A stretch of 63,420 nucleotides of DNA, counting the filler, from Craspedostauros australis (Eukaryota), in NCBI GenBank assembly GCA_030167865.1. It is 17 parts of 17 records of this genome, joined end to end, with 100 filler letters (N's around TTAATTAATTAA, not from the genome) between each part and the next. Parts side by side here need not be neighbours in the genome. Positions count along the whole stretch, not along the records: positions 1 to 3,831 come from JALAGF010002549.1; 16 more parts are not named here. One strand, 5' to 3'. Position 1 is the stretch's first letter. Every line of letters starts with the position of its first letter. Below the pieces are notes generated by a model. The model had not been told where the DNA came from. It was given only the letters and a program-made list of their open reading frames with translations, and did no database searches. Made by a program: the position numbers and the translations under genes. Positions 1-52,217 of this stretch are shown here, in pieces.

Positions 1-3000
1 CTCCGTGAACTTGTGGAACTTATCGTCTGCGAGTGGCTTCGTCCAGAGGTCTGCGAGCTGGTCGTCGGTGTCGATGGCGTAGATCTCGATGAGTTTGCGA
101 TCCACGTACGATCGAAAATGGTGGTATTTGATGTTGATGTGCTTTGTTCGTGGTCGCATCTTTGGAAACTTGGCGATCTCGTAGGCGCCGGAGTTGTCCT
201 CGAATGCATTGCAGTACACCCTGGGCTTGTACTTCTCTGGTACGATCTCCCTGGCGCACATTTCGTTGAGCAGGTTCATCATTGGAATCACGTCGCGCAA
301 CGCTGTTGATAGTGCGATCACCTCGGCTTCGGTTGTGCTCAATGCGATCTCCGTCTGCAAGCGCGATGCCCATGCGATGGGGCATCCTGCAAATCGAATC
401 AGGTATCCGGTCCTTGATCTGGCTGTGGCTGAGTCTTCGGCTGCTGTGTCTCTGTTCCACAATCCCGCAAAGTCCGCATCTGCAAAGCATTCGAATGCCT
501 TGTCGTTGGGATTCAGGATGATGCCTTCGTCTCTGGTTGCCATCAGGTACCGCCCGATGAGGTTCACCGCTTGTGAGTGCGATTTCTTCGGATTGGCGCT
601 GAATCTGGCTGCTTGGTGCACAGCGTACCCGATCTCCCCGCGAGTGGATTTCTCCAGGAAGTTGAGCTTTCCGATGACTGATCGGTAGCTCCAGGTCGCT
701 TTGTGCTCCTCGCCATTCTCGTCTGCATCCAGGATCTTCGTCGTCATTGCCGGCGTGTCCCTGGGTCTGGTGTTTGGACGAAAATTCAGGTCTTTTACGA
801 TCTGATCGATGAGATGGGGCTGCGACAGTTTGATGCGTCCGTCCTCCAGATGAGTGACATGCACACCCAGGTAGTCCGTGAGATCCCCTTCGTCAGTGAT
901 GTTGAACCGCTGTTGCATTTGATTGAGAAGCTTGTCAATCTCTTCTGCGCTGGGTCCTGCAAGGATGCCGTCGTCCACATACACCAGAAACATTGTCTTT
1001 CCGTGGTAGTAGACGCATTCGTCAACTTTGCTCTGTGTGAATCCGATGTCGCACAATCCCCGGTGCAGGTGCTGGTTCCAGACTCGCCCGGCCTGCTTCT
1101 GGCCGTACAGGTTCTTCACCAGCTTCAGGACATAGTCCTTCGTGTCTCCCTCCCCGATGCTCACTCCCACTGGCACTTCCATGTAGATAGTTGTCTCCAC
1201 TTCTGCCTGAGGGTATGCGAGCACGAAATCGATCTGTCTTGTGTGCCATTTGTGCAGGATCGAGAGGATGAGGACGAGTCTGATGGACATCCAGGTAACA
1301 ACCGGGGCGTATGTCTCCCAGAAGTTCACTCCTTTGACCTGCTGGCCTCCATGGACGTTGAGCCTCGCTTTCCACTTGTACACCTCTCTGGTCTTGATTC
1401 GGCGTTTCCGCTTCATGGACCATACTGATGCGACCACCTTGGTACCTTCTGGCACTTCTGATCTCGGGACGACCTCCCAGTGGCCATTCTCGTGGTGAGC
1501 ATTGAGCTCCGCTTGCATTGCCTCCTTGAACTTCATCCGATCCGGTTGCTTCATTGCTTGGTGATAGTACATGGTGTCAGGGTCGGCTGATGCGGCGAAT
1601 GCGATTGGATCTGAGGTCTCGTTGGTGTCGAATCCTCTTCCATTTTCGAATGTGTTCGCCACCTCGAATGCGCTGGGCAGTGCGACGACTTCGGTGTCGC
1701 CATTCTCCCTCACCTTTCTGGATGGTGTCCGATGCCTGTTCGATCGACGCAGTCCTGTTGATTGGTCCTGCTGATTGCTGGCTGGTGGCTCCGTGGTGGC
1801 TGTGTCGCTGGGCGCTTCACCGATGTCGATGTTGTCACCCATTGTCGCCGTCGTTGCTTCGAACTCTTCGTCACCTTCCGGTTCGTCTGTGTTCGTATGC
1901 TGGTTTGTTGGCGATGTTGGCGTATCCGCGTCGGAGGACCCGCGTAACCCTTCGGTTGCGGTCACTCCCTTGGAGCGCTTGATCACTCCAGGCTTGCTGA
2001 TGCCTGCCAATTGCTTCCACCGGCCATGATTGGTGCCTGTGGTACCCACCACTGTCTCAAACATATCATCACACTTGACGTGGAATTGCGGCGACACCAG
2101 TCCGGTCCTTGGGTTGAGGATGAGTGCTACCGATCTTGCGTGCCGAGGAGAGAGTCCGAGGTAGATCCCGATCCTTGCCTTCGACATCCATTTTGGCTGT
2201 GATTGGCCATTGGCGAGTCGAGGGTTCAGGACATACGTTGGACATCCGAACGAATGAAAGTGCTTCAGCTGGGGCTTGATTGCGGACCCAGAGAATCGTT
2301 CAATTGGTGTGATGTGATTGATCACTGGATTCGGGGTGGCGTTCATCACCTCATTTGCCATGCGCAGGGCATACGGCCACAGTGAGATGGATGCGGCCTC
2401 CTTCCATCTGATGTGCATGTGCAGCAGCATTGTTCGAGCTGCCTCCTGCAGATCCCTGATGCGTTTCTCCGCCACTCCGTTTTGGAAGTGGGCGTAAGCG
2501 GCGCAAAAGGTGATGGTCTGGCCTGAGCGATCGACGTGCGAGAGGAATTTGTTCTCTGCGAATCGACCGTTGTCGGCATGATAGTGCCGAATCGTCACTC
2601 CGTAAGTCTTGGCGTAAGCCTCGAATGCTTGTTTGGCATGCAGGGTTTCTTCGGCGTTGGTGCTCTTCTGAAGGTGCACGTAGCTGAATCGACTGTGATG
2701 GTCAGTGAAGATGGTAGCTGCTCGGTACCGCTGGGTTGTCAGTCTGCCTTTGATCTGCCCGATGAACCCCTGTGTTGGTGACTCCATTTGGTCCACCGAC
2801 ACGCAGTCCCCAGGCCTGTTGATTGGCACAAGCTTGCTCACTTGCTGGTTGCCTCCCTTGGTCCGCCATGGCCGTCTGGTTGCCTTGCCATACTCACATG
2901 ATGCGCATGCAGGCAGTTGGCAGTCCCGGAACTTCGCAGGGATCTCTCCCTTGGAAGCCATGGTCCTCATCTTGTTGAAGGATACATGCCCAAGCTTGTA

Positions 3001-3002
3001 GT
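1..3002 (-). mobile_element. pol: Ty1/copia pol (integrase-RT-RNase H), 3' part; open frame runs off the left edge of the window
   Basis: Manual translation of the minus frame ending at base 1 gives YKLGHVSF..CASC (integrase Zn finger), HADNGRF, FQNGVAEKRIR, WKARLNVHGGQQ, QIDFVLAYPQA, LVYVDDGIL (RT) and QLADLWTKPL (RNase H). IN-RT-RH order indicates copia. The ORF track shows no stop-terminated ORF in this frame. Confidence 0.95.
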
Positions 3003-3716
3003 TATCAACATCTAGATCGAAATTAAGGTACCCATCTCACATGACTAAAACGTGACTCAATATTTTTGATTCGACTCGATTGGAGAGTATAGTCGGATGA
3101 GTCTTGATTACACGGATGATATCCAGTCACTACTGTCATCGGTCCTGACGTAGTCACTGACATCATCAATGACATCAGAGGATCAGTCAGTGTGATCCTC
3201 GGAATCGAGATTATATATTAGTCATGGTATGCTGACCTGTCTAGCATGACCGAATGCATCATCGAGCACGTGGCAACAATACTTAGGATCCAGAACAACA
3301 TCGTCAGGGATGATGCAAGCACCCCGCCGACGTAGACGGATCAACCCTTATGTAATCAAACAGAGATCAAGGCAGACAGGATCAGACAGAGATGAAGAAA
3401 GACCCAAAGGCGAGAATAACACGAGATATCGTGTAGACCGACATGCCATCTTGGGCAATGTTTTAGGAAAGACTGCGAGAGAAACCACGAGGTAATCGAG
3501 CAGCACATTAGAAACCCGTGCAATAGGCACCATCATTAGCAATAGGAGATCATTATCTCATAATCCAAACTCAATCATCAATTGACACACCAACTAATAG
3601 CAACAACAACAACACCAAACACACCAACTCCACCTCTTGGCTTGATCACCCTGGCGGCGTAGTAAGTGCAGTGTTTGGTGCTCCCATCTTGTCCTGTGTG
3701 TAATTGCTGATTATCA
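3003..3716. mobile_element. 714-bp non-coding insertion, probable solo LTR with TA...CA termini
   Basis: Flanked by a 5-bp direct repeat GTAGT (2998-3002 and 3717-3721). Removing it plus one copy restores the host frame ADMLRLHY-KLGHVSF. TATA-like TTATATATTA near 3211. Confidence 0.85.
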
Positions 3717-3831
3717 GTAGTGCAGCCTGAGCATGTCTGCTGTTGGGGTAGAGCTGTACTCCGAGGTAGCATCGATGGGTGCTCTGTAGGGCACATCCCT
3801 GAAGTCGATCTGCGTAGGCTCCTTGCTGAGT
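3717..3831 (-). mobile_element. Upstream continuation of the interrupted copia pol (pre-integrase region)
   Basis: Translates LSKEPTQIDFRDVPY...PTADMLRLHY, which joins KLGH across the insertion. Confidence 0.85.
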
Positions 3832-5542: not shown

Positions 5543-8057
5543 TCATGGCTGCTTCGATCCCTCACTTTGGCTCTCGCCCGATCTGATCTTGGATGCATCG
5601 CCACTTTGGAACTGTTGATGATGATGCTGCCTCTGCTGAAGTTGTTGCAACACCAACACCTGTTCCAGAATGCCGGATGCCCCCAAGGCTGAGGGATTCA
5701 ATTGTGCTTGTGGCTGTGCCTGTGGCAATCCTTGCGAGGAACGGAGCAAGGATAGCGCAGCACCCGGAAGCTGCAGATGAGGTAGTCCTGGCGTGGTTGA
5801 TGCCGGTGGCTGCACTGCGGCTGGAGCTTGAGGCTGTGTGCCGTTCGCTGCACTTCTGAGCAACGCCACCAAGGCCGACGAATGCGATGTCGCACGTGGT
5901 TCTGCCGCGCTGAGACTTCCGGTTATGGTTGCGTTCTCCCCCGCGTTCGTTGCTGCGGGTGCTTGCGACTGCGACTGCGCTTGTGCTGAATGCTGCTGCA
6001 TTTGTTGTTTGAGCTGCTGAGCGAGGAGTTGAAGGTGCTGGGACTGCGACGATGGCTGTGGTTGCGTCTGCTGCTGCGCTGTGCCGCTTGCTGATGCTGA
6101 CGCGCCTTTGCTCGCGCTTGTGTCTTCCGCCGCGGCATTTATCGTTGTTGTCGCTTGGTGCTGCTGCTGTTGCTGCTGTTCCAGAAGTGCCTGCAACGCC
6201 GTTGACGTATCAGATGGAATCAACGGATTCGCAGAGCTGGCAAGAAGGTCACCGACGGATTGCTGCTGTGCCAGCAACAGTGGATTCAACCCACCCAATT
6301 GCTGTGCCAGAAGCAAGGACTGTTGCTGCTGTTGTTGTTGCTGTTGTTGCTGTAGAACGGACGCAAGCAACGATCGCTGTGTCGCCATCTCCGTCGGCTG
6401 TCCGAGTTGTGATAGTGCCAACAGCCTTTCCATAGAATTCTGCTGTGGTTGAAGATGGGCAAGCAAGGCACCGGGATTGCGTTGGAGCAAGCCAAGAGAG
6501 TTGCCGCCTGATAGCCGTTGCAGCAGCTGCTGTTGCGCAAGTTGCTGTTGGAGTTGGAGATGAAACGGAGACTGATTCTGTTGTCCCAACTGCTGCTGTT
6601 GTCCCAACTGCTGCTGTTGTTGCTGTTGTTGTTGCTGCTCCATGGCGACACCCCGAGCAAAGGCATCCAATGTCTGTTGTCGGGTCTGCTGTTGTGATTG
6701 ATTGTCAGATGGGAATTGAGACTGGCTGGCCGAGGCTGCCTGGACACGATGGGGGGTACTCGCGCCAGTCTCCGCATGCGCTGATCGCGGTGGTGATAAT
6801 GACGATGAAGACATTGCCACCGTCGCAGCGGCCGCACCAGTGGCGGCACTGGGCCTTGCCAACGGCGGTTCGTCCCTCACCTTCAGTTTCTCACGAGTGA
6901 TTCTGATGCATAGATCGATCCTGTCCTTGACGAAGTACGGATGCGATATGGAGCTTTGCTGACGTTTGCCACCTCTGGTGGCGTTGAAGCCCCAAAGGTT
7001 GAGTTGCCGTTGGAATGACTTGTACCGCGATTGCTTGAAGTAGCGTGGCACTGCTCATGTCAGAGCAATTCAGTGCATGGCGCACGAGTACGGTATTGGC
7101 ATCGAATGACGGTTGTGAGAAGGTTGCAATTTGGCAACGTTGTTGATACAAGTGCAGGTGCAGTTGGATGGCATTTGATTTCGTTCCGTTTGATGCCATG
7201 CCATGCGTGAGAAGTTGGATGTGATGCAAGGTGTGAGTTGGTTGTGAGTTGGTTATGAGTGATGTTTCAACACAGCGATTGCATGTTGCACCAGTCTTGG
7301 TCCCCAAGAAAGGGTCGCCACACGGCGTCACTGGCATGATGATCACGATCACGTTGGTCAATGTTGCATGTCCAGTCGTTTGCATCTCCAGTGGTCTCGA
7401 AACGAATGCCAAGCACCAATAGTCGGTCACCAATCGTCCAACGACCAGTCACCAACCAGCTAACTTACGGATGATATTCATGAATCTGTCGCGGTCTCGA
7501 ATGACGAAGGAACGGCCGTCAGGCGACCAGCCCACGATGTCATCGTCGCCCTCTGTTTCTGCGGCTTCCAGCATCTTGTGAAGCTTGAAGGGGAAATGCA
7601 GGAAGGACGGCGATGATGTTGGCAACGCCGTGGGAGGCGATGGGCCTGATGGCAATGCTGCTGCTGCTGATGATGATGGCATTGCTGATGCCACTTGCTG
7701 CCGCTTGTCGCCGCGAGCTCGATTCGTTTCGTATTCATCATTGCCACGATCGTGGACTTGATCGACGCTGCCGCTGGCAGATGTTGTCGGGGCGCTTTTC
7801 GCTTGCTTGAGTTTCTGCTTCTGCTTCTTCATCTTGAGCCGTCTCTTGTCCTTCTTCATCTTGATCTTCATCTTCGGACTGCCGTCCATGCGGGATTTGT
7901 TTGTTGGCCTTGCATCGCTCCCATCGTCATTGCTGCCATGGTCGTCATTGCTGCTGGAGCAGCTGTCTTCTTCGCCGGCCTTTGCAGGTCCTTTCTTTTC
8001 ATTCCTCGCAGCCATGGAACCGTGCAAGCTCTTGCGCTTTCTGCCGCCTTTGTCCAT
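5543..8057 (-). CDS. HSF: Heat-shock transcription factor (HSF DNA-binding domain), 2 exons: 8057-7469 and 7050-5543, about 698 aa, Q-rich C-terminus
   Basis: FPFKLHKML..IVGWSPDGRSFVI in exon 1 joins LPRYFKQSRYKSFQRQLNLWGF..HPYF in exon 2 across a 418-bp phase-1 GTAAGT...CAG intron (7468-7051). Confidence 0.93.
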
Positions 8058-11000
8058 GACGGCGTGGCTGTGATGTGGTGATGGGTTGGCTTGTCAGATC
8101 CTGCGAGCTAAGTGGAGTAGAGTACTCGAAGTAAGTGGTTGTCGTCAGGGTGGGCAGGGTGGTCAGGCTTGTCAGAGTTTGGTGCTTTCGTTGAGATAGA
8201 AGCGTCTGCTTATTGAGATGGTTGTGGCTGTGGGTGTGGCTGAGGAAGCAGGCAGCTTGATGGATGGACGAGGGTCCGAATCACAGGTCAGAGTGGATTG
8301 CAACCACGGCGCGTCGAAGTATCAACAGCAGCAGTCGCAGCAGCAGTAGGAGCAGCGGTGGGAGTATGGCACAACCTATGAAGATCCAGTGGTTGACCGA
8401 CCCACGCTGACAGGCGAGATGGGAAGGCAACTTGGAGTTGTACCTACGCTCTGCGAACGGAGATGGCGAAGCCGGAGAGCGAAGATGATTGTGACGGTTG
8501 TGAGGGAGTGAAGCAGGTGGGCACTTCAGAGCGTAGGATGCAGAGCGTAGGACGCAGAGCGTGGTGTGGAAGATAGGAGAGTGCAGGTATTCGTGTGTTT
8601 AGAGTGCAGAGCATGTAGAGTGCCAATACTTGAATACTTGGACAGCGCTCCACGCTCGTCTTGCTCTACTCTACTCGTACTCTGTTCGTGCTCTACCCTG
8701 CTTTACTCTGCTCTGCTCTACTCTGATCTGTTCGTTTCTCCTGGGTTTTGGGGACGGGTTCTTTGTTCCTCTGTGATTGCCGTTGACCCTTTGTGGTGTT
8801 TCGTCTTTGCTTTGTTCCTTGCTTTGTCTGTGTGTTTCGCCGTTGTGAATGCACGAGCTATCGCAGGTATGAGCATGGTCCTCTGCTCGTATGTTTGTAT
8901 GACATTGGTAACGGCGAAGGTGAGGGCGATGACCGAAAGAGAAAGGAGGCACAAGGAAGCCAGAAATAGGCAGAAAAGCCAAAACCAAGACCAACTTGCC
9001 TCGCAGTACTGCGTTATTGTTGTTGTTGTCGTTGTTCTGACTTTTCGTTGTTGGGAATCTCGTGGTTGTGCCTGCTCTATTCTCGTCCACTGTGCGAGCT
9101 ATTCCTCCGTCTTGTCGTCTTCGCCACAAGTTGGCTGGATGGAGAGAATGGTGAATGTTCGTCAACGGTTCCTGTATCGTGGGGTGACACGCGCTCTCCC
9201 ATGAGCGCCAACAGAACGTTACTCGGCGTCGCTCTTGTCCACCCACGCGGTATCTGCATTGATACGGGAATGTGCCCTCACTCGCCATGCGTACCAAACA
9301 CGATCTCAGGACAAATTGGCGGAGCCCACAACACCACCACCAACAACGACAACGACATCATCGCCATCGACAACCAAACCTGCAAAGGGCGATGGTAGAA
9401 AGCGTGCACCACCACAGAACACCGAATGGTCCATTGCGGCGCGAAGAACAAAGCCCAGTCCCTCCTCAAAGGAACCGGGAAAATGTCTCTGCGAAACCGA
9501 TTATAAACGCCCCAAACCACCACGTCAAACACCCAACAGAAACACAAGTAAACGACACCCATCGAACTCCAACCCCGCCAACTTCACCGAACAAACAACC
9601 AAATGATCAGACCAAACGATGACGAGATGGTCGAGAGGTTCGGGACACTCGAATAGATCGTACTTGACCAGGCCAATGGATGGACGCCTCTTGATCCATC
9701 CATCTCCCGACTGCCTGAACAAGTGACTATCATTTTTTTCCGTTTCGAACGGAGCATACTCGGTACCTGCGACAAGCGACAACGTCACTCGCGATGATGA
9801 TGAGGAGGAGGAGGAGGGAGACAGTGGTGTTGGTAACAGGGATGAGAGCAAATGGGGAGAAAAACAGCGAACTGCGAAAGATCGGAGAGTTCACCAGCGA
9901 GGCACTTTCTGAGGGGGCATTCCCCCATCATTTGAAAGTCCCGCGCGTATTTATGAACAAGGCGAAGAGGTCGCAACTCTTTCACGCCACACACAATCGC
10001 ACACACAATCAAGAACACAACTGCAACTCGCCCATGCTATGTACTACGAAAATCGCCACCTCAGAGAAGCCGTATAATTGTTGTGTCACGATGGAATTCG
10101 GAAAGGTCCAAAAACTCAGGTGGGTGCGTTAACACGAGACGAGTCATCCATTCGTTGTTCTGCTTCGCATAAAAGAGCTTCCAAGCGATTCAGACAGACG
10201 CTGGATACAATACGAATACCACACGAATGATGTTGGTCGGCGAAATTCGGTGGGAGATGATGTCGAATTCGACAAGCGAGGGAGAATGCGCAGTTGTTCT
10301 TGTCACAGTCCTGCATCGTCTTGTAGTGTACTGTACCACTGCACGCGGTGTCACATGGTGCTCTGCCCCGCTTTACCAGTACTCTCTTCTATTTTTGTTG
10401 TTCGTTTGTTATTGTGGGGCTATGGTCAGAGGGTGGTACCTCTTCATGGCACATCCACACTGTACTCAACTACTCGTATTAGCAGTCGTACGTAATAGGT
10501 TGTACCAGACATGCTTGTACTCGATTCCTATTGACGCAGCGCGATGCAAGATGAGATTGCCGAAGTGCTTCACTCCACGCTGCTCCGTCCTACTCCACCT
10601 CACTCAACCTTACTCCACTCAATCCGCAATGCAAACCAACAGAGGCCCTTCTTGTTGGTAATCTTCCATCGACCAGAGTCTCAGATGGTTGTTCTGCATG
10701 GACGGGAAGAGCTCGTGTGAATGAAATGCACGCGAGTACTCTGAGAAAGCGGGATCAAGTCTCGCGCAAAGCGCGGTTGGAGATTTGGTCCTTCGATGAG
10801 TCTCCAGCTTGACCTTGAGCTCGAGGTTAGGCATGGACTTGGATGCCGTGTTGTCTCTCCCGTTCTGCCGTTCATGGCAATGGCGACGGTGGCGGCGATG
10901 GTGGCCACATCGGCTCTGTCGCAACAGCAACCAACTACGACTGCTCATGTTCGGACCGCCCAACCTCTGTCTTTTCGCGACATTCGACATTCGACATCGC

Positions 11001-11504: not shown

Positions 11505-13358
11505 GGCTGCTGTTTGCATTTTTCGTGATGCCTCGGTGTTGACGAGTGCACCTGATCGAAGTAGAAATTGCACGCGTCGGAAGGAGAGGTGCCCGAGTTG
11601 GTAGTGCCACTTGAGGAGTTCCTTCTGTGGTTGGCTCAGATTTTGGTTGTGTTGTGCCACAGAAGTGATGGTTGTTGTGAGCGCGGCTGGCACGTCGGAG
11701 AGGTCGCCTGTGCGGTAGGCACGTGATGTGGGAAGACGATTTGTTTTCCGGTTGTGGGCGATGATGGATCCTCGTTCTTCATTTCCTGGGATACCGCTCA
11801 GCTTGATGTTGGTAGCTTCCACGATGATGTTCTCTCCTTTGTACTGATGAAGGAGGCTTGTGGTGCTGATGAGTTTGACGGATGATCCAGGTACGTAGAA
11901 GGCCGGGAGACGCAAGGATCGTGGCTTGCCGTTGGTGTCGAGGATCGACCACTCNACTNTACCCTTCGTNTTGACTTTGGTGCGACGCAAGAACCCGTTA
12001 AGGAAGGTCGGTGTTGTTGGTGCAGAGGTGGGGCCCACAAAATCGTTCATGTCATTGGTGACACAGATGGAGGCACCGGTGTCCCACACTACATCGAAGG
12101 AGCCACCGCTTGGGATGACCTCCTCTACCTTGTGAGGCGCGGCGAAGGCGTGTTTACACCCGAAGATGGCCGTGAGGGTGTAATAAGCATTGGTAAATAC
12201 GTTGGTGTTTGCATGTTCACTTGATCGTGCTTCGCAGCGTTGGTTGGGTGGACGAGCGGGACTGGGCGTATGCTTCGCGCGACAGGAGTTTTGGCTTGTA
12301 CCTTTGCATCGGCGAACCCGTCGAGTTTTGTTTCGGTGGTTCGCACGTGGAGCGTCGAATTTTGCGATGGTGGTGCGTTTGTCGTGGAGGAAGTGTTTGA
12401 AGTCGTCGTTGCCAAACACAGAGTCGTACAGACTGTCTGCTGGCGTGGCTGGATGGTGGTAGAAGCGTTGGTGTGCTTTAAAACGCTTTCGTTGTTTCTT
12501 CTTCCAGACGTTGGTTGCATGGCTTGTTCGGGCCGAAGTGGGTTGGTAATGGCGTGGAACACTGGCGTGGAGGGCGAATAGCACAATGGCTGTTGTCATC
12601 CACATCATGGTACTCATCACGTACCAGCCACACTCAATGCCGAGCACGGCGATTTGCACTGAACAGAGGGCGAGGAAGGATCCGGTCAAGATGTTGACGG
12701 TGTCGAAGGAGGTGAAGGCTTTCCAAACGGCTGTCCACCAGGCAAGTTCGCTCACGTGTGCTTCCGCGGACAGGCAGGTCCAGGCAGCATGGTCGATTTC
12801 GAGCTGTGGGCTTTTGGGCTTTCGCTGGAAGTCGTCGATGTGGCCAGCTGTGCCGTGGGAGATGCGCCAGTGGCGGCACTTCGCACACCAGTGGAAGGTC
12901 TTGTCGTTCATGAGCTTCTGTTGTGGCTCACCCTTCCTTGGGGGTGTTGTGATCCAGGGGTCCTTCTTTGGTTGTGCTCTCTTCGTGGTTGACTTGTTCT
13001 TGGCACCCTGTCGCTTGCCTCCTCTGTGCTGTTCCAGAAGACGGGCTTCCTTCGTAGTTGAGGTGTGGTTTGCGTGCATGCGAGGGGTGTTTCGATCACG
13101 AGAGTGCCTGTTGGCGTGCCAGGAGTTTCCCTGTAGCTCGTCGAGATAGGCATTCTCAGCTACGCTGCAGATGTCCATCCAGGTGAGGTCCTCACGGAGC
13201 AGGTGAGGCTCCGCTCGCTCGTAGGTCTTGAGGGACTTGTCTTCGATCAGTCGTCTGAGTCGATCGCTGATGTTGAGGATTCGATGACGGTATCGTTCTC
13301 CTGACGTGGTTCTTCCTCCTGCCATGAAGAAGTTGTCTGTCATGGTACGGAGAAGCGA
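11505..13358 (-). mobile_element. Ty1/copia (CoDi-type) gag-pol fragment: Gag C-terminus, protease, start of integrase
   Basis: FHWCAKC..W..SH...H knuckle, VVWDTGASIC aspartic protease motif and QKELLKWHYQLGH in one open frame across the contig. Confidence 0.92.
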
Positions 13359-17637: not shown

Positions 17638-18827
17638 GTTGGCTGTCGTATGGTTGTTGAATGCAAAAAGGAGAGGAAAAGCGGCAAGTTGTTGGATTGT
17701 GACAGAAATCGTCGCTGGGACAGAGCGTGTTTCGTCGTGTGAGTCTTCGGAGTGTGTGTGTCGATGTTTTCGACCCACGTTGAGAAGCACGGATGTGGCA
17801 ACAAGGCACACAATCTTTCACTCATTAGGAGCGCGTGTCTCAGTAGGGGTTCCGCGTGGCCTGCGGTTGGTGCGTCCACCTGTCTTGCCATCCGCACCAC
17901 GCCAAAGCGAACGGTGGGAGTACATCCCTCTGGCACCGGCCAAATGCACCAGAACATCATTGTCAAAGGGGATGCAACACGATTCCAAGCTGTGCCGGCT
18001 CACGGCGGTCCACCCTCGGAGCGGGGTNNNNNNNNNNNNNNNNNNNNNNNNNNNNNNNNNNNNNNNNNNNNTTAATTAATTAANNNNNNNNNNNNNNNNN
18101 NNNNNNNNNNNNNNNNNNNNNNNNNNNCCAGTGCCATTTTGTGGGATCAGCCAAGAATGCCTTGATGAGGTCAGTGGCATCAGGCCCATTCTTGTAAAGA
18201 TGGGGATCGGATCCCACCATTGTGGAGTTTCTGCAATGTTGTGCTGTTGAGTTGTTGGTTCAATGTGTTGATGTGTTGATGTGTGGCTACATGGATGCGC
18301 CAATGTGCGAATTATGGGAATATTCCAATGACCCATATTCTTTGTGACCATGAGAATGTTCAAACTGTGTCATGGACGAATTTGCCCCAGTCTCAAATCA
18401 GTCACGATCCAGGGGAACAATACGCACCAAAATTTCAACAATGTTCCTTGTGTGTTGAANNNNNNNNNNNNNNNNNNNNNNNNTCCAGATCAATGGTGGA
18501 TCCGGAAGACTATCGCACAACCAAGTATAACATCAGAGTATAATTGTGACCCCAACACCGAAATATGAATAACATGGTGCATCATCACAAAGTAAGCTGA
18601 ATGAGGATGATCATGGCCAGTAACATGGGAGATGCTGCTGACTCTGCATCCTGCAATCAGACAGAAACACATCTCATCATCAGCTTGTACTATCTAAGAT
18701 TGAGTGATTCTCAACAACCCAGATAAGTTGGCAACTAACAACTACAATTTTACCGCCAAACGGAGCCCACGATCTGACCACTGCACACACCAGGCTAACA
18801 GTTCTGACATCTGGACCAAAGTAGCAC

Positions 18828-20816
18828 AAATGTGTTGATGCGTTGATTTGTGGATGCATGGATGTGCCAATGTGCAAATGTGTTGGTGAACCAATGTGCC
18901 GATGTGCCAATGTGTTGATGTGCCAATGTGTCGATGTGTTGATGTGCGAATGTGCTGATGTGTGGATGCTCCAATGTGTCGATGCTCCAATGTGTCGATG
19001 CTCCAATGTGTTGATGCTCCAATGTGTCGATGCTCCAATGTGTCAATGCTCCAATGTGTCGATGCTCCAATGTGTCGATGCTCCAATGTGTTGATGTGCC
19101 AATGTGCTGATGTGCCAATGTGTCAATGTGTTGATGTGCGAATGTGCTGATGTGTGGACGTGTGGATGCGTTGACTCGTGGATGCGCCAATGTGCGGTTG
19201 TATTGATGTGTGAATGTGCTGATGCGTGGATGTGTGGATGTGCCGATGTGCTGATGCGCCAATGTGTGGATGTGTTGATTTGCGAATGTGCTGATGCGTG
19301 GACGTGTGGATGCGTTGACACGTAGATGCGTTGACGCGTGGATGCGCCAATGTGCGGATGTGCTGATGCATGGATGTGTGGATGCGCCGATGTGCTGATG
19401 TGTTGATGCGAGGACTAGTGGATGCGCCAATGTTTGGATGTGTTGATGTGAGGACGAGTGAATGTGCCAGTGTGCGGATGTGTTGATGCGAGGATGCGCC
19501 AATGTTCAGATGTGTTGATGCAAGGACACGTGGACATGCCAATGTTCAGATGTGTTGATGCGAGGATGAGTGAATGCGCCAATGTTTGGATGTGTTGATA
19601 TGAGGATGTGTGGATGTGCCAATGTTTGGGTGTGCAGATGTGTTGATGTGTGGATGCTCCAATGTTTGGATGTGTTGATGCAAGGATGAGTGGACATGCC
19701 AATGTTTGGATGTGTTGATACAAGGACGAGTGGATGTGCCAATGTTTGAATGTGCAGATGTGTTGATGTGTGGATGTGTTGATGTGCCAATGTGTCAATG
19801 TGTTGATGTGCGAATGTGTTGATGTTCGGATGTGTTGATGTGAGGACGAGTGAATGCACCAACGTTTGGATGTGTTGACAAGAGGACATGTGGATGCACC
19901 AATGTTTGGATGTGTTGATGCAAGGACTAGTGGATGCGCCAATGTTTGGATGTGTTGATGTGAGGACGAGTGAATGTGCCAGTGTGCGGATGTGTTGATG
20001 CGAGGATGCGCCAATGTTCAGATGTGTTGATGCGAGGATGAGTGAATGCGCCAATGTTTGGATGTGTTGATGCGAGGACGAGTGGACATGTCAATGTTCA
20101 GATGTGTTGATGTGAGGATGTGTGGATGTGCCAATGTTTGGATGTGCAGATGTGTTGATGTGTGGATGCGCCAATGTTTGGATGTGTTGATGCGAGGATG
20201 AGTGGACACGCCAATGTTTGGATGTGTTGATGCAAGGACGAGTGGATGTGCCAATGTTCGAATGTGCAGATGTGTTGATGTGTGGATCCGCCAATGTTCG
20301 GATGTGTTGATGCGAGGATGAGTGAATGCGCCAATGTATGGATGTGTTGATGTGAGGACGAGTGGATGCACCAATGTTTGGATGTGTTGATGTGAGGACG
20401 AGTGAATGCGCCAATGTTGGGATGTGCAGATGTGTTGATGTGTGGATGCGCCAATGTTCGGATGTGTTGATGCAAGGATGAGTGCATGCGCCAGTGTGCA
20501 GATGTGTTGATGTGTGGATGTGCCAATGTTTGGGTGTGCAGATGTGTTGATGTGTGGATGCTCCAATGTTTGGATGTGTTGATGCAAGGATGAGTGGACG
20601 CGCCAATGTTTGGATGTGTTGATACAAGGACGAGTGAATGTGCCAATGTTTGAATGTGTTGATGTGTTGATGTGTGGATGTGCCAATGTTCAGATGTGTT
20701 GATGAGAGAACAAGTGGATACGCCAATGTTCAGATGTGTTGATGTGTGGATGTGCCAATGTTCGGATGTGTTGATGTGCCAATGCACCGATTCGTTGATG
20801 TGTGTGTGTGTGTGTG
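18828..20816. repeat. About 2-kb octamer-based satellite (GATGTGTT / GATGYGCC / AATGTTTG variants) with 16-bp and 40-bp higher-order units, ending in (TG)n
   Basis: 8-bp periodicity throughout. The 16-mer TGTGTCGATGCTCCAA repeats at about 18965-19090, and the 40-mer GATGTGTT-GATGCGAG-GATGAGTG-GATGCGCC-AATGTTTG from about 19500 on. Confidence 0.95.
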
Positions 20817-23656: not shown

Positions 23657-24324
23657 TAATAGAGCTAAACTAGTAACTACCTCAGTGGGAGCCACTACGA
23701 ATCATCCAACTAGATGGCAGTCCAGTAGATCGAACCCACGTCCCATCAGCAACCACGTTTGGGGACAGATCCAGATCATTGAAGCAGATCTTTGGAACCC
23801 ATGTCAAGGAAATCAGAGGGTTCCGATGACCCAGGTCACCAGAACCCCTCCCCACCGAAAACTTGATGCCGATACATGACTGCTGGATTGACGGTACGGT
23901 TCCACGTGGGAGTACACGCGAGATGACCTTTGCCCAGCTTCCAACTCCATGAAGGAAACTCTCCCATGGTACTGGAGCTACGCAAACCCTACGGCCCTTT
24001 TCTGACAGCAACCCAACGAAAGGGCCTGTCAGGAATCGAGGGTACGACTCTGTCGGAAAGATACCCATGATTGCCGCAACTCCCAACATTATTTGTCACA
24101 CCTTTGGATATTATTNGTCACACCTTTGAATATTACACATTCCACCCACGACACGAATCACACGGGAATGACCTCAGTCTTACCAAGAAAACAAGCCTGT
24201 CCTCTGTGAACAAAGAAAAGGCCACGATATCTAGATCAAAGTGAAGGAAGATGATGACCGACACATTGATGATCACCCCATCTGGAGATCATGGCACGTG
24301 TCAGCCAGGGACTAGAACAACTCA
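23657..24324 (+). mobile_element. LTR-like sequence starting TAATAGAGCTAAACTAGTA, related to the LTR at 29513; runs to the contig end
   Basis: First 19 nt identical to 29513-29531. Shared blocks CCACGTTTGGGGACAGATCCAGA, TTGAAGCAGATCTTTGGAAC and AGGGTTCCGAT. Similarity starts abruptly at TA. Confidence 0.8.
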
Positions 24325-28395: not shown

Positions 28396-28816
28396 GTCAC
28401 CACGTCGACAGCTGTCTCCAAGTCAGAGCAGGAGGCAAAGATGCGATGACCCATGAAGATCATGGATACTGAAGGTGAATTTCAAATGGTAAGTACTCAT
28501 GGAGTAGAAACCAGTACTGAATGAACAGAGTGTCGAATGCGGAGTACGCATCGAACACGGAGTATCGTGTAGCACGAGCACACGATGTTGAGAGAGAGAG
28601 AGAGAATACAGAGAGGAGCGAGAGAGGATCTCGCGTACCGACTCATAGTCGGAGACTGAATCTACGAAACAGATTGAAGCGCCGAGAGCATCGGGCAAGA
28701 GAACGAACGGACACCGAGAGTATCGGAGTGCCAACATAATGAAATAGCAAACAGACGACTATCAACCAACACCATCTTCCACGATCGTAGGTTACCGAGA
28801 GCGGAACTTGCCAACA
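28396..28816 (+). mobile_element. 3' portion of an LTR of the family at 39306-42152, ending ...GCCAACA
   Basis: Reverse-complement match to 40083-40513 and 41468-41883. Beyond CCAACA, and one further shared C, the sequence is unrelated copia coding DNA. Confidence 0.85.
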
Positions 28817-29512
28817 CACGAGTGACACCTTTCGATCCAGTCACCAGAACTCACCGGAGCAGTACGGTTCCATCGGACTACGCGCAACTACCCAACGACA
28901 TGGATGACGGAGACCATCACAATCCATACAACGAAGACGGAGTTCACGAAGACGACGACGACGGCAGCTTTGACGACGAGATAGCTGCGGCAGCCGTGGA
29001 GCAGCTCCACGAACTGAGCACCAGATACAAGGACAAGGTCAACAAAGACACCTGGCTCGCCGACAGCGGAGCTTCGTGTCACATCGTCAACTCGGACGCC
29101 GCTCTCTTCAACGTGCGGTACATCAAATCCTTCGTCCAAGTGGGAGACAGCACGAAGCTGGATTCTCCCAAGATGGGATCCATTTGCTTGAAGGTCAAGC
29201 AACAAGACAACATTGGCCACATCATCCAGCTCGATGATGTGAAGTACACACCGAAAATGGCGGTGAACCTTTTCTCTACGAACAAGGCTCTGTACAACGG
29301 TTACCAGCTTGGTAACAACGGCATTCTGATGGACATCATCAACAGATCCGGAACAAAGATCGTGTTCGATCGAGTCTTCCCCACATCCAACGAATTCATC
29401 ACGGGAGTGCAGATGCATCCCATCATGCCAACCGACGACGATAAGGCTTCCACAGCCATCATCAAGAACCCATCCAAGGAGATCAACGCGGTGAACTTGC
29501 ATCGAATGCTCG
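28817..29512 (+). mobile_element. Copia pol fragment (protease to pre-integrase), cut on both sides by other LTR elements
   Basis: TWLADSGASCHIVN, VKYTPKMAVNLFS and LHRML|, broken just before the expected GH. Confidence 0.88.
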
Positions 29513-30044
29513 TAATAGAGCTAAACTAGTACCCATATTAGAGAGAGAGACTACGAATCACCCGACTCGTCAGCATTCGAGTAGATCGAACAAATACTTC
29601 ACTGGCCCCCACGTTTGGGGACAGATCCAGAACCTTGAAGCAGATCTTTGGAACTCGTGTCAGGGAACCAATAGGGTTCCGATAACCAAGTTTCTGACAC
29701 CCACCATCGCCAAAACGCCGACACATGGAAACAGAACCCCAGCAACGCGCATCATCGCCCATTGTCTCTCACGGAACTCAGACAACGGATCTCGATCCAC
29801 AGTACTTGGGCTACATGACCCATACGCATTGTCATTCAGGACACCACAGGAGATCCTCCCTGCAGGGAAGAACCATAGCACTAATCTCATAATCCGCACG
29901 TGTCTTCACCCATCATTAGTATTCTCAATTGACTACTTGTGATCCTGAAGACTCTTGTTCAGACCCGCTTGCCAATCAAGCCTCTACAGCCAACACCAGC
30001 TAACAAGTGATAAGCCATAACGTCCAGGCTCTATTAGATTATCA
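29513..30044 (+). repeat. 5' LTR of nested copia element; starts TA, right end either 30036 (..GCTCTATTA) or 30044 (..GATTATCA)
   Basis: Left edge defined by the break in the host ORF and by the related copy at 23657. 9-bp inverted repeat TAATAGAGC/GCTCTATTA. GATTATCA matches the TSD-defined end of the 3003-3716 insert. Confidence 0.8.
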
Positions 30045-30081
30045 GCCGAAAAAGATTGTCAAGCTCTTAGACCTCTACAAG

Positions 30082-33000
30082 ATGACCGTCACCAACCACC
30101 TCCATCTCTCCAACCGGCCACCTCCCAAGAGGAACCCAGGAGACAGGACCCAAGCCTTCGAGACCGTCCCCGCAGACCCGAAGGACCCAAGCCTCTCCGC
30201 CATCCTCGATGGCACGCCAGGCTACCCAACGGCTGGGCCATCCTCGCTCTCCTTCATGGAGATTGGAGATAGCTTCGTCGAAGTCACCTTCCGACACCCC
30301 ATCATTGTAGATGCATGGAATCGAAAGGAGAGAACCTATGAAACCGAAATCGTGCGCCACGTCCACAAGACTACCTGGAACGCGTTCACGGAACTCAAGC
30401 AGGAGTTCAGGATCAGCATCGAAACCGCCATGATCTTCGATCTCTTCCCACCCAAGACCCTCGCAGAAGAGAAAACCATCTCCCAACTGTTGAGCACTAT
30501 CCACAAAGAAACCACTGACATGACCCTGGCATCAATCATGGTCAACTTCAAGGACCCAGACGACGTTGCAAGAAACTATGAGATGGAACTCTTCATCTAC
30601 CACATTGGAGAATGGGTCAGATCCATCGATGTGGAGGAAGAATCCACTCTCGAATCCACCCTTGACGCGATGTTCGCCAACATGGCCACCACCGCCAAAA
30701 CCATGGCAGACTTCAGCCGTTCCGAAAGATGCGGAAAACGCCACCACAGCAAAGCATGGACGGACGCCATCGTGAAACACAAGGAGCTACTCTCAAGCGC
30801 ATCCGCGACCAGCATCTCATCTGGGTCAGAGGCATCTACCTGCAGAACTGGACGCGACAACGACAGTCACCCAGGAGGAACTCCATCTGGGTTCTCTCTC
30901 ATGCTCGGTGGGAACACCCTGCACCGTACCCCACCCGACTTCCCGAACGAAACCCAACTCTCCAGCATCGCCAAGCAAGGATCACCAAACACGTCCCCAG
31001 TAGCCATCGACACTCGCGGTACCACCCCGCCCAACGAAAGTACCGAACCAGGCACTGACTACAACCAACACCCTGGTAACAACAACATCGCAGAAGTACC
31101 TGCCAACCGCGGCTCCACAGGACGGAACAGACTTTTCCCCAACGTGGACCCAGCAACGATCGGTGACTACGATCGTAACCCACCCGGCGCCAAGGCAGTA
31201 ACCTTTGCCCCCGAAACAACCACCAGAGGTCCAGGAGGCACCAACGCACCCCGGATGAATTACCCAGAGAACGATGGGGACCGTCCACCTCACGATCGGA
31301 ACCCGCATCCCTACCATGGTACCGCGGACACACCAGCCTCACATGGCACGGGTAACTATCGAGGTAACAACGGGCACGAGCCCGTAAACCGAAATCCTGC
31401 CGGTAACCCAAACGCGAACCATGGGACAAGCTGCCCGCACTGTGACAACCATGGACCACCAGGTAACCATGGACACAACGGAAGCAACCCTTATGGGCAC
31501 CCCCTAACATGGGGAATCATTTCCCTCATGGTCCACCGCTTCCGATGTACCATGGAACCCACCCAGGAGGATTCCCACCCATCGGAATTCCTATCCCCAT
31601 GGGCCATTTTCCCCCTGGAACCGGAGGCTTCCCAGTACCGCAAGGAGCCTTCACCCCTGTTGGACATCCTCACCCTGGGTATCCGCCACGACCACCCGTG
31701 TATGGGTACCGCCCAACCGACCCCAATGGAGGCTTCGAAAGGCATGACTCACACAACATGGGCCCGAACGTCCAACACGGGCAACGCGGATCCGGGTATG
31801 CATCCCATGAAGGATCCACCCACAACGAACCACCAATCGCCCAGGCCAAGCTAACGAAGCGACGCCCCATCCCTGACTCCGTCAAGTTCACGAGTGATGC
31901 GGCATCCTTCCAAGTGGTGAAACACCAAATCCATGCTCATCTCCTTGGAAACAACATGGCGTACCTGATCAACGATCAGTTTTGGCACAAGTATCATCCC
32001 CAAGGAATCCACGCGATCAGGGAATATATTGATCCAGTGACAGGGGTGTCAACAACCACCTCCCCAGAGCAGGTTGCGAGCGACGTCAGGACCTTATTTG
32101 CAGGACTATACTCCGTCTTCGCCGGCGGCCCAGCACATGGACTTGCCACCAGAGGACTTCTCACCGAGGACGGTATCCTATTCTGGAACGAGCTCCTAAA
32201 CACCTACGATAACGACTGGATCCAAGGAATGGAGGTCGACTCTCTGATGAAGAGGGTACACGACTTCAACCCCAGCAGACAGGACCTGGGATCCTACGTG
32301 AAGGAAATCCAGGATATATTCGCGAACGTGAATTTCCTGGCGACTAACCCGGATCAACAAGTCTCCGACGCGCAACAACGCCGCACGCTCCTTAACCATC
32401 TCATCGGTTGCGACGACATCAATGTACGCACTATGGTCCGGAGCATCGAGCGAAGCCCGGACATGCAGTCAATGGGAACCACCTGCATGTACCTCATCTC
32501 CGAGTCCGCCAGAGACACTGCGGTAGCCAACAACCAGCGGGGATCAAGGTCCGGCAAACGCAGGATCTTCAAGGCAACCGCCGAAGCCAACCAAGATCAA
32601 GCTGAATCCAACACCGAGATGGTCATCAATGCCATCTCGAAGAAGCTACAGGAAGATCCCACCTTCATCTCGCAAGAGGTATTCGATGGACTACCCGAAA
32701 AGGTCCGTCGAGTGATCATGAAACTCCGCAGCTCCCTCCGTTGGGCCCGCCACAACAATGACCGGAACGGATCCGGGTTCACCCGCGTCGAGAACAAGAA
32801 GGAGCAGGATGACACCCAACCACCTGCCAGCGTGAAGCCCCCAGAGAAAGGGGAGGAAACCAAGCCACACAAACAGTATGGAGGCGTCACTCACGCGAAC
32901 CTGGCCAGGTACACCCCGGAATCTACCGAGGGAACCGAACCCCAGGACGAGAATGGCTCAGATCTGTCCTCAATTGACGCCTCGGAACTTGCCAAGTTTC

Positions 33001-36000: not shown

Positions 36001-37958
36001 TGTTACACGAACATCCCATGGGACACGACATCCATCTCTTTTGCCTGCAACCTCACAGCAACAGAAGTCAACCAACTTGCATACCTGGCCCAGTGTGACC
36101 AGTACACCGAAAGAGACAACTTCATCCTCGATGGAAGGAACCTCAACTGGAAGGCAAGGGGAATCACCTGCCACCATCACGAGACACGAGAGGATGGGAC
36201 TACCGAAGAAATCCTAGAGATCCTATGGATGAACAGAATGCAATCATGGTGCAGGATGGGAGATCTAAGGGCCCAACAGCCGGACATCATCATCGATTAC
36301 ACCGAGCAGAACCGCTTACAGGACCAGAAAGGGTTCGAATGGGTGGAACTCCACATAGCAAGGAACCAACACATGTGATCAATGCTAGCCACCAAACTGG
36401 CGAACCACCGCCCAGGAAACAAGTACAAGTTCGGCACCCTGGTACCCAACAGCCTGAAACACGCCATGGCTATCGACAGGCTCAACGGAAACGGATTTTG
36501 GAGCGAAGCCATCAACAAGGAACTGGACCAGATCAAGCGGTTGGGAACCTTCAGACAACCAAGACCGAACGAAACACTCGACGGATACACCAAGATCCCA
36601 TACCACATCGTATACGATGTGAAGTTCGACCTACGTCGAAAGGCGAGACTAGTGGCAAACGGAAACAAGACATCCCCACCAACGGAAGACGTATACTCAG
36701 GAGTGGTAGCATCAGATACCATTCGAATCGCCTTCGCCATCGCAGCAGCCAATGGACTGAGGGCATACGCAGGCGACATAGGGAACGCGTTCCTATACAC
36801 AGATACCCTCGAGAAATGCTACATCCAGGCAGGACCGGAGTTTGACGACCTCGAAGGCAAACCCCTCATCATCCAAAAGGGACTCTACGGCCTGAGGACA
36901 TCAAGTGCGAGGTTCCACGAACACTTCGCGGACACCCTTCGAACCATGGGATTCCTACCCTCCAAAGCCGATAACGACATTTACACCCGAGAAGCCGACG
37001 ACCACTACGAGATGATCACCACATACGTGGATGACGTACTGGTCTTCAGCAAGGATCCCATCCCAATCATCGACAACCTCAACAAACGGTACACCATGAA
37101 GCAATGCGGTGACCCAGAGTACTACCTTGGCGGAAACATCGTCGACCTTCCCAAGAACTGGAAGGACAGGGGAGTCAACATCGGACTCTCGGCCCAGACA
37201 TACATCGGAAACGTCATCAAACGAGTGGAGCAACTGGTAGGGAAGACAATCCCAAAGGCATCCACTCCCATGGTAGAGGCCTGTCACCCAGAAAGCGACA
37301 CCTCGGACTTCACAAGCGCTGAAGACGCCAGGACCTACCGATCAATACTGGGTTGCCTCAATTGGGTCGTGACCCTCGGGAGGTTGGACATCCAATATGC
37401 CACGACGACTATGGCGCGGTTCGCTATGGCACCAAGGGAAGGACATCTCCTGACCATCCAACGTATCATTGGGTACCTCAAAGGTTGAGAAAGGGGAGCC
37501 ATCCTCTGCGACCCCAACCCCGTGGACCACACAAACATCAACACTACCCTCTCAAGCCATTGGAGAGAATTCTACCCTACCGCAGCAGAAGTCACCCCCG
37601 TATCAGTACCAACACCAAAAGGGAAACCGATCCAAATCACGTGTTACGTGGACGCCGACCATGGCCATGACCAGGTCACACGGAAGTCCATGACGGGCGT
37701 GGTACTATTGATCAACAACACCATCGTCAAGACCATCTGCAAGCGACAGAACACAGTGGAGACATCCACCTACNGATCCGAATTGGTAGCNGCCAGNATA
37801 GCTACCGAGGCGGTCACAGGTCTGCGCTACATGCTGAGAGACCTCGGAGTCCCCATCGACGGACCCGCAATCATGCTCGGAGACAACAAAGCGGTGGTAC
37901 TCAACACTACGGTCCCATCCTCGACACTGAAGAAGAAACACTGCTCATTGGCTTTCCA
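30082..37958 (+). pseudogene. Near full-length CoDi-type copia gag-pol, disrupted (frameshift near 31500, shift(s) in 35400-36000, TGA at 35310, 36376 and 37486)
   Basis: Gag core (DGILFWNELL..YD), protease AVCDGGAQCC, integrase VATDTIF/HSDNAKE/QNPAE, RT KYKFG..RRKARLVANG..YVDDVL and RNase H YVDADHG..KRQNTVETST..GDNKAV..LKKKH. Confidence 0.93.
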
Positions 37959-43031: not shown

Positions 43032-43217
43032 CGCAAGATCGCTCTGCGCTTCGATATCATAATTGCGGTCTGTTTTGTATCTGGCGTCGGTGTCGCCGAG
43101 ACACGGTTCGCGCCAAGGATCGCCGCACTTGGCGGATGCCACATGCCTCACGTTGACGATACCAATGATGGTTGCCAGGAACAGCGGAGAAGCTTGGTTG
43201 ACGATGGGGAATTTCAT
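43032..43217 (-). CDS. First exon (62 codons) of a secreted protein, copy/allele A
   Basis: Signal peptide ending VASA, then KCGDPWREPCLGDTDARY. Donor GTAGGT at 43031; the intron-like sequence runs to the contig end. Confidence 0.65.
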
Positions 43218-52200: not shown

Positions 52201-52217
52201 CGCAGCAGTCCATCATC

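Follow-up and report, generated by a model that had tools for sequence, protein, structure and literature searches.

Among LTR retrotransposons, Ty3, Ty1, Ty5, Tf1 and the Dictyostelium element DGLT-A have integrases whose insertion is steered to genomic features through host-protein tethers, the tether sites being tRNA genes, heterochromatin or promoters. Insertion at a fixed site inside another repeat is seen with non-LTR elements: R1 and R2 in rDNA, and Tx1L in Tx1D. To our knowledge, no target-specific LTR element aims at the coding motif of another retrotransposon. The two nested insertions described here, from the Craspedostauros australis assembly GCA_030167865.1, both lie in the codons of the first zinc-finger motif of a copia integrase. 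R1, R2 and Tx1L use a sequence-specific endonuclease and enter one site in one orientation, whereas these insertions are of the integrase type and occupy two positions in both orientations. Among the leading full-text matches of a literature search, none concerned the targeting of integrase zinc-finger codons by an LTR element.

The closest descriptions of nesting come from plants and diatoms. In 12 plant genomes, according to the accessible part of the survey, LTRs and the integrase domain are where nested LTR elements are rarest (Jedlicka et al. 2019, PMC6911290). The insertions reported there resemble those found here in that an LTR element sits in an LTR element, the duplications are mostly 5 bp and the distribution along the host element is non-uniform; in that part of the survey, however, whole regions are favoured (3' UTR, inter-domain spacers), whereas here there are two hits in one 18-nt integrase motif (PMC6911290). 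Diatom CoDi elements, whose diatom-specific copia lineages are CoDiI and CoDiII, also nest in each other, for example CoDi2.3 in CoDi5.3 with the duplication ACAAG, and 3 of the 26 CoDi families (CoDi3.2, 4.2 and 4.3) lack TG/CA termini (Maumus et al. 2009, PMC2806351, in the sections available). Those sections contain no site preference within other elements, no integrase devoid of the HHCC zinc finger and no GATTA[A/T]CAG primer site (PMC2806351). The invading element described below is likened to the CoDi elements by description only.

The window, the whole 63,420-nt stretch that was analysed, consists of 17 small contigs joined. On the first of these, insert A (3003-3716, plus strand, 714 bp) interrupts target T1 in antisense orientation. 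Its first letters are TATCAACATC and its last letters GCTGATTATCA, and direct reading shows a perfect 5-bp repeat, GTAGT, on either side (2998-3002 and 3717-3721). The upstream piece of T1 (3717-3831, minus strand) is an open frame that translates as ...TPTADMLRLHY up to the junction. The downstream piece (1-3002, minus strand) resumes as ...DN/YKLGHVSFNK... in a frame of 1000 open codons, running from the YKLGH of the integrase zinc finger through reverse transcriptase (RT) and RNase H and off the contig end. Deletion of the insert and one GTAGT in silico restores MLRLHYKLGH. An initial annotation had described a 714-bp insert splitting LRLHY/KLGH with this duplication, and its junctions and duplication are exact.

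Judged by its sequence, T1 is a canonical copia polyprotein. It matches RVT_2 (1.6e-44), SH3_retrovirus (2.8e-07) and, under the Pfam cut-off, gag_pre-integrs (3.2e-04; residues 2-39 against profile positions 30-66). It has 1149 relatives at E<=0.001, the best 61% identical and one named from the diatom Epithemia. Among the N-termini of 120 T1 relatives, several ORFs start just past the motif; this was rejected as a trace of insertion, since a break anywhere further upstream would leave the ORF to begin at the next Met.

The second target, T2, begins with an LTR/5' UTR part (28396-28817, plus strand), of which inverted copies with 92-93% identity lie at 40082-40514 and 41467-41883. In those copies, on two other contigs, gag comes next; in T2, unlike there, it is absent, presumably through an internal deletion. 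The part that follows (28818-29512, plus strand) encodes the protease barrel and the start of the integrase (Pol_BBD, 2.8e-14) and ends NAVNLHRML plus one base, that is ...KEINAVNLHRML plus one base at 29512. T2 has 973 relatives at E<=0.001, of which the 14 that extend to its end were aligned across the motif. All 14 carry a His where T2 has its own, followed by another five residues on. The form LH..LGH is found in ten and T/N/F variants in four, and eight reach the C-x2-C downstream. This His pattern places the T2/B junction between the L and the G of LGH. BLASTP of T2 against 120 T1 relatives gave no match; the two targets are unrelated copia families.

Element B starts at 29513, a position fixed by the exact onset of homology to the copy at 23657. 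The claim that an element starting there cuts an unrelated copia after NLHRML is borne out by the Pol_BBD match, the homolog alignment and the exact LTR start. Because the far junction of B lies off the contig, we infer both the GH with which T2 would continue beyond B and the target duplication, presumably GCTCG (29508-29512), by analogy with the 5-bp duplications of A and of the metagenome relative L049; one copy is present on the contig. The joint might instead be a chimera of the assembly or a product of recombination, leaving A in T1 as the one true insertion and no coincidence to account for. One side of B is all that the contig holds, the draft assembly is of low quality, with single Ns and several frame breaks within the internal part of B, and T2, which lacks gag, is itself rearranged. 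The joint nevertheless falls exactly at the first LTR base, which is set independently by the 23657 copy and by a 6-bp inverted repeat, and its two sides have no sequence in common that an assembler could have bridged. An artefact or recombination at this joint is improbable.

The 5' LTR of B (29513-30036, plus strand, 524 bp) is bounded by the 6-bp terminal inverted repeat TAATAG...CTATTA, and its end is set by this repeat together with the primer-binding-site (PBS) motif right after it. That PBS-like motif, GATTATCAGCCGAAAAAG (30037-30054, plus strand), matches GATTA[A/T]CAG at the LTR/internal boundary. The internal part (30055-37958, plus strand) encodes a Pro/Gly/Asn-rich ORF1, a protease-like region, integrase, RT and RNase H, and runs off the contig end, so that the 5' LTR is the only one present. 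The integrase (about 34400-35310; its relatives match 34362-35423) precedes RT in the polyprotein. RT was identified by RVT_2 (2.6e-24 at 36379-37488) and by relatives that match 36052-37956 in tblastn. Integrase relatives occur among the proteins of Nitzschia sp. Nitz4 and Fistulifera solaris, and B is assigned to a diatom-specific copia branch. A second element of this lineage, B2 (47346-50273, minus strand), was recognised by a tblastn match to P0149 (1021 residues, 36% identical); the region upstream of it contains GATTAACGGCAGTCC near 50755, with no junction visible.

The integrase of B lacks the HHCC zinc finger. Pfam found neither gag_pre-integrs nor rve in the ORF that contains it, and in an alignment with 48 relatives, no H/C pattern was conserved ahead of the catalytic core. 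(This 49-sequence alignment was too diverse to yield search patterns, for which a 13-sequence alignment was used.) In the AlphaFold model just two short helices (161-182) precede the core, and nothing recognisable as a targeting domain was found ahead of it by Pfam or in the model. The core and C-terminal domain match the integrases of PFV, MMTV and RSV (4e7k_A, E 5.8e-10), suggesting a retroviral-type core. The B lineage is thus without the very motif that it interrupts.

Neither invader has TG...CA termini: those of B are TAATAG...CTATTA and those of A TATCA...TATCA, so the earlier observation that both begin with TA holds. Starts in the TA-LTR families are TATCA[AG]CAT and TAATAGAG. The metagenome relatives L035 and L049 have TATCAG...GTGATA/GTGTTA, and L038 apparently TGTCAG...TTAACA. 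In the window GATTA[A/T]CAG is found at two places, each of them an element end, and GATTAACAG[TC]C stands at the LTR/internal boundary in nine metagenome relatives. GATTA[A/T]CAG is the conserved start of the primer-binding site of the lineage, which explains why GATTATCA had been noted in both elements at or near the right LTR end. That placement is correct for A; in B the octamer (30037-30044) opens the PBS and follows an LTR whose last base is 30036.

Insert A is probably a solo LTR that belongs to this lineage, the membership being read from its termini (TATCAACAT...GATTATCA). Its start, TATCAACAT, agrees with TATCAGCAT of L035 and L049 at 8 of 9 positions. Its right end, GATTATCA, is identical to the PBS-start octamer of B and may be compared with the LTR end of L038, GATTAACA. 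A has no internal part, and its longest ORF is 81 aa. No second copy of its LTR was found in the window or among the 75 loci fetched. The LTR bodies are not similar: BLAST found no similarity of A to the LTR of B or to the 23657 copy, and the A-B alignment score was equalled by 42 of 300 shuffles. A full-length A element would carry the primer site GATTATCAG and an integrase without HHCC. The initial proposal of a single lineage has therefore gained ground, firmly for B as a diatom copia with an HHCC-less integrase and, for A, through the LTR start and the PBS octamer only.

As had been claimed, the two insertions fall in the same H-x-x-L-G-H motif a few nucleotides apart. The duplications lie at motif nucleotides 2-6 (A) and 9-13 (B, presumed), an offset of 7 nt, with A antisense and B sense to their respective targets; their centres, at nucleotides 4 and 11, are symmetrical and the inserts opposite in orientation. 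The flanks of A and B share no nucleotides beyond the motif codons, and no convincing palindrome or common sequence was seen at both sites. A Pol III box-like sequence at the T2 site was also considered and set aside. Since T1 and T2 are unrelated, as are the LTR bodies of A and B, two independent events took place, and the long open frames of T1 and T2 indicate that both targets were hit while young.

The window holds one further TA-LTR and one further canonical motif. LTR C (23657-24324, plus strand) is 77.5% identical to the B LTR over its first 178 nt, the first 19 being the same. It had been said to lie outside recognisable integrase DNA, and no recognisable copia was found in its left flank. 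A third canonical copia, T3 (contig 11505-13358), comprises gag, a DTG protease and ...LLKWHYQLGHLSF. Its motif, WHYQLGH (11589-11609, minus strand), is intact and unoccupied, though its GCACTAC is the same as in T1. Thus two of the three TA-LTR events coincide with two of the three canonical HHCC motifs, and canonical copia, about 14% of the window, is the site of two of the three events. By our own arithmetic, uniform insertion into copia elements of 5-6 kb would bring a second insert into the 18-nt motif hit by the first with a probability of about 0.003, uncorrected for multiple windows.

We favour, with a probability of about one in two, two ordinary, independent nested insertions co-located by chance. 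A diatom-specific copia branch with TA LTRs, a GATTA[A/T]CAG primer site and an HHCC-less integrase would have inserted twice, once into T1, where a solo LTR (A) now remains, and once into T2, with its gag deleted, where the insert (B) is a full element. Each insertion would have broken the target integrase at its first zinc-finger motif. The shared motif would be a coincidence in repeat-rich DNA that tolerates hits in dead or dying elements, with no homing involved. The 7-nt offset, the opposite orientations and the absence of common flank sequence beyond the motif codons count for chance, as do LTR C outside copia, the empty T3 motif and the relatives L049, L035 and L038, which give no support to targeting. 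The searches of relatives' flanks described below and the published nesting in plants and among CoDi elements were counted on the same side. The figure of about 0.003, the copia share of about 14%, the independence of the families and the youth of the targets count against it.

A real site preference is a tentative reading, in which an HHCC-less intasome would be guided to DNA encoding the canonical copia HHCC motif, either by the DNA itself or by something bound there, and would integrate a few bp to either side according to orientation. The two-of-three overlap on both counts argues for it, as do the independence of both target and invader families and the B integrase without a zinc finger, on which Pfam, the 49-sequence alignment and the AlphaFold model agree. 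Symmetric duplications with opposite orientations could be produced by a tether of fixed geometry. Against it, there are two cases 7 nt apart that share no nucleotide pattern, no targeting domain was identified, and the same position and orientation usual for site-specific elements are not seen. LTR C and the relatives L049, L035 and L038 lie elsewhere, T3 is empty although its site DNA matches T1, and A is joined to the lineage by termini alone. Nor is a mechanism known that would let an integrase recognise a motif of such loose DNA conservation. Extending such a preference to element-on-element parasitism, in which a zinc-finger-less lineage homes into the zinc-finger DNA of canonical copia, disables competitors at a single conserved point and, having lost the motif, is itself immune, is likewise tentative; deliberate targeting of the integrase motif is possible.

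Relatives outside the window bear on the same question. Of 68 metagenome loci, most had no flanks and were LTR-collapsed contigs. Among the 43 loci of at least 3 kb, 12 had any long direct repeat, mostly terminal overlaps (111-127 nt) of the kind that collapsed LTR assemblies give. L049 is complete, with both LTRs and the duplication TGTTA; L035 has one 40-nt flank and L038 one 1073-nt flank that is stop-rich. None of these three has recognisable integrase DNA at its flanks. The L038 flank reads ...SYEWH up to the junction, a resemblance to the motif that was dismissed as chance in a 24-residue frame of stop-rich DNA. No match to gag_pre-integrs, rve, RVT_2 or Pol_BBD was found among 119 flank ORFs from 22 loci, and tblastn of 120 T1 relatives and the T2 ORF against the relative loci gave matches confined to RT and RNase H of the elements themselves. 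These metagenome negatives are weak because assemblies break where a repeat sits in a repeat.

In viral contigs, neither the LTR start of B and C nor the LTR end of A gave a match, and an integrase alignment yielded no confirmed locus. A prokaryote genome collection contained seven contaminant contigs; L072 (12.4 kb), the sole long contig among them, was without a clean LTR pair. Among 150 T2-related representative proteins, three (P0215, P0230 and P0311) end at or one residue past the first His. This weak lead toward a site preference was set aside as a sign of insertion, as it is not significant against 65 C-termini over 150 positions.

If the preference were real, we would know of no earlier case of an LTR retrotransposon directed at a coding motif in other retrotransposons. 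Every hit would kill a competitor's integrase, competition between elements could shape integrase targeting, and a natural integrase aimed at a short DNA region would be at hand. If chance is the cause, these are ordinary nested insertions that still aid annotation of a little-described diatom lineage, through its TA-ended LTRs, its tRNA-half type primer site and its integrase without a zinc finger.

Priming by a tRNA half is known from Drosophila copia and yeast Ty5, in which the PBS is complementary to the anticodon-arm region and not to the 3' CCA end. In the B lineage the primer would probably be a tRNA fragment whose end lies in the anticodon arm. CTGTTAA, which resembles an anticodon loop, is part of the complement of GATTAACAG. 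Such a loop would carry GTT or GAT, unlike the CAT of initiator Met. ARAGORN detected no tRNA gene in the window.

Insert A, a 714-bp probable solo LTR, lies at 3003-3716 inside the canonical copia element T1, and GTAGT is read directly on both sides of it, at 2998-3002 and 3717-3721. The minus strand of T1 translates as ...TPTADMLRLHY upstream of the insert and as YKLGHVSFNKMRTMASKGEIPAKFRDCQLPACASCEYGK... downstream, where 1000 codons are open; within L-H-Y-K-L-G-H, the duplication takes in the Tyr codon and all but the first base of the His codon before it. These exact junctions bear out the initial annotation, in which a 714-bp insert with a 5-bp GTAGT duplication splits LRLHY/KLGH. T1 matches RVT_2 (Pfam, 1.6e-44), SH3_retrovirus and, below threshold, gag_pre-integrs on residues 2-39, and its polyprotein has 1149 relatives at E<=0.001, mainly from aquatic metagenomes, with one named from Epithemia. 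The insertion of A is a clean integrase-type event, and T1 was intact or nearly so at that time.

The second target, T2, has a protease-to-integrase frame at 28678-29512 (+) on contig 28396-37958, with a Pol_BBD protease beta-barrel (Pfam, 2.8e-14). The frame ends in ...NPSKEINAVNLHRML plus one base, followed directly by the start of element B, TAATAGAGC..., at 29513. Residues 101-278 of the T2 ORF matched 973 proteins at E<=0.001 in a full HMMER search, and 14 that reach the query end were aligned. The His column of T2 is His in 14/14, and a second His follows five residues later in all 14, so the cut falls between L and G of LGH, placing the break after NLHRML as had been proposed; C-x2-C continues the motif in 8/14. 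Because the 3' LTR of B and its far junction lie beyond the contig end, the GH continuation of T2 and a GCTCG duplication are predicted rather than read. That this one-sided joint is an artefact or a recombinant is improbable. T2 itself is a damaged element with a probable internal gag deletion: its first 422 nt recur on two other contigs as inverted copies of 92-93% identity that lead into a gag ORF, whereas at 28817/28818 the T2 5' UTR directly adjoins the protease region and the gag ORF is absent.

Two inserts in one integrase motif are thus confirmed, and the observation is sharpened: as claimed, the sites are a few nucleotides apart, the duplications lying at nucleotides 2-6 (A) and 9-13 (B, predicted) of the 18-nt motif. 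T1 and T2 give no BLASTP match, as expected of the unrelated families they had been taken for, and the LTR bodies of the invaders are not alignable (the A-B score was reached by 42/300 shuffles, and that of A with L049, a metagenome relative of B, by 105/300). Since both targets and LTR bodies are unrelated, the two insertions were independent events. By our own arithmetic, a second insert would hit the same motif with a probability of ~0.003 (uniform inserts, elements of 5-6 kb), and canonical copia makes up ~14% of the window. The co-location was singled out post hoc in a very large scan, and we favor, with a probability of about 0.5, the chance co-location of two ordinary nested insertions. 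The ~0.003 figure and the independence of the events argue for a real preference of the TA-LTR lineage for the zinc-finger codons, but the inserts differ in orientation relative to their targets (A antisense, B sense), and this flip, like the site offset, is not what exact site recognition gives. Moreover, a third canonical copia, T3 (motif at 11589-11609, minus strand), has LLKWHYQLGHLSF intact although its site DNA, GCACTAC, is that of T1. Such a preference is a tentative reading, and causes other than these have a small share.

The left end of B was set by LTR C, a related copy at 23657: homology starts at the same T while the flanks differ, the first 19 nt are identical, and identity is 77.5% over 178 nt. 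The B LTR opens with TAATAG and closes, at 30036, with CTATTA, two hexamers that are inverted complements of each other. Among relatives, the L035 LTR starts with TATCAGCATATGAG directly 3' of a polypurine tract; L049 has the same start next to unrelated flank and is bracketed by a 5-bp duplication, TGTTA; and L072 starts with AATAGAGAG after its G-run, resembling TAATAGAGC of B. A starts with TATCAACAT, an 8/9 match to TATCAGCATATGAG. Because these starts are alike, the TA start is a lineage trait and A most likely belongs to the lineage of B. Maumus et al. 2009 (PMC2806351) report TG/CA missing in 3/26 diatom CoDi families. Against a preference for integrase codons, LTR C, previously noted as outside recognizable integrase DNA, lies in DNA without copia signal, and L049, L035 and L038 lie outside recognizable integrase DNA.

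A scan of both strands of the window finds GATTA[N]CAG just twice: once at A's right end and once at 30037, immediately past the B LTR. Its counterpart GATTAACAG[TC]C stands at the LTR/internal boundary in nine metagenome relatives (L024, L027, L030, L035, L038, L046, L049, L061, L062), and for this reason GATTATCA is the conserved start of the lineage's primer-binding site. Its reported position at or near the right LTR end of both invaders holds for A; in B it is the primer-site start, after the LTR end. The complement of this start includes CTGTTAA, or CTGATAA in the case of B; this resembles a tRNA anticodon loop and suggests priming by a tRNA half, the mode used by Drosophila copia. The window contains no tRNA gene. 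The L038 LTR ends in GATTAACA, which its primer site repeats, and the right end of A implies the same arrangement. In relatives, duplicates of the primer-site octamer lie in or close to the LTR end (GATTAACAGATTAACAG; L038:117-140, L049:1408-1447), and L049, L062 and L065 each have a second copy 31 nt upstream; this doubling suggests that primer-site sequence has been copied into U5 repeatedly.

Forty-nine relatives of the B integrase were identified, among them proteins from Nitzschia sp. Nitz4 and Fistulifera solaris. The 1281-residue ORF that encodes this integrase has no Pfam match to rve or gag_pre-integrs. When B and 48 relatives are aligned, the D, D, E core is present (ATDT, SDNAK, QNPAE), and the conserved stretch before it has no His/Cys pattern. 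In an AlphaFold model from that alignment (mean pLDDT 71.9; residues 160-420 mostly >90), a pair of short helices (161-182) precedes the core, which is RNase-H-like and leads into a small beta domain; by Foldseek, the model resembles the integrases of PFV, MMTV and RSV (4e7k_A, E 5.8e-10). With no Pfam zinc finger, no His/Cys pattern and only short helices before the core, the B lineage does not encode the motif into which A and B inserted. B2, another member of the lineage at 47346-50273 (-), has no visible junction. B is at least 8.4 kb, large for copia; its ORF1 (30004-31854; 616 residues, Pro/Gly/Asn/His-rich, no Pfam match) overlaps the next frame by ~390 nt. Integrase-encoding contigs L069-L075 of this eukaryotic lineage are binned in bacterial MAGs (Bacteroidota, Nostoc, Moorena, Sphingobacteriaceae), probably as contamination.

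Further junctions were sought in 68 metagenome loci of B relatives, 43 of them of >=3 kb; 12 of the 43 have a long direct repeat, mostly 111-127-nt terminal overlaps. Queries of 120 T1 relatives plus the T2 ORF in tblastn reached nothing beyond the RT and RNase H of the elements themselves, and no copia domain was recognized in 119 ORFs (>=70 aa) taken from the outer parts of 22 loci. Together with the flanks of L049, L035 and L038, these negatives weigh little against targeting because repeat-in-repeat is rarely present in short-read assemblies. Among the 150 best T2-related representative proteins, 65 have C-termini inside the 239-position protease-to-integrase profile; three of these stop exactly on the first His or on the residue that follows it (P0215 ...DVNNLH, P0230 ...DINRFH, P0311 ...NQLHK), which is not significant at 0.43 ends per position.

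Target-specific LTR elements include Ty3, Ty1, Ty5 and Tf1, and the site-specific non-LTR elements R2 and Tx1L reside in other repeats; to our knowledge none of them targets another retrotransposon's coding motif by integrase. The top-ranked results of a full-text literature search likewise held no LTR element so aimed. Diatom CoDi elements nest within each other (PMC2806351). LTR elements often nest, with regional bias; across 12 plant genomes the integrase domain is among the least-hit regions (PMC6911290), in contrast to A and B, both in an integrase motif.

The 17 contigs of the 63,420-base window are separated by artificial linkers, N44-TTAATTAATTAA-N44. Their source appears to be a diatom, judging by the Epithemia relative of T1, the Nitzschia and Fistulifera relatives of the B integrase and two HSF-type ORFs. 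Neighboring contigs 39306-40590 and 40691-42710, which carry LTR and gag of the T2 family, have identical starts and then 84-100% identity over long stretches, as do 42811-44666 and 44767-47148; both pairs may be haplotypes or recent copies. Contig 18128-20816 holds a ~2-kb array of 8-bp period at 18785-20700 (TGTGCCAA / TGTGTTGA-like units) with strong GC skew. The two ORFs at 5546-8093 (-) encode DNA-binding domains of the HSF type (1.5e-08 and 6e-05), a family expanded in diatoms, and a 1477-residue open frame at 51906-56336 (+) has an AAA_16 ATPase domain (1.9e-19) as its one recognized domain.
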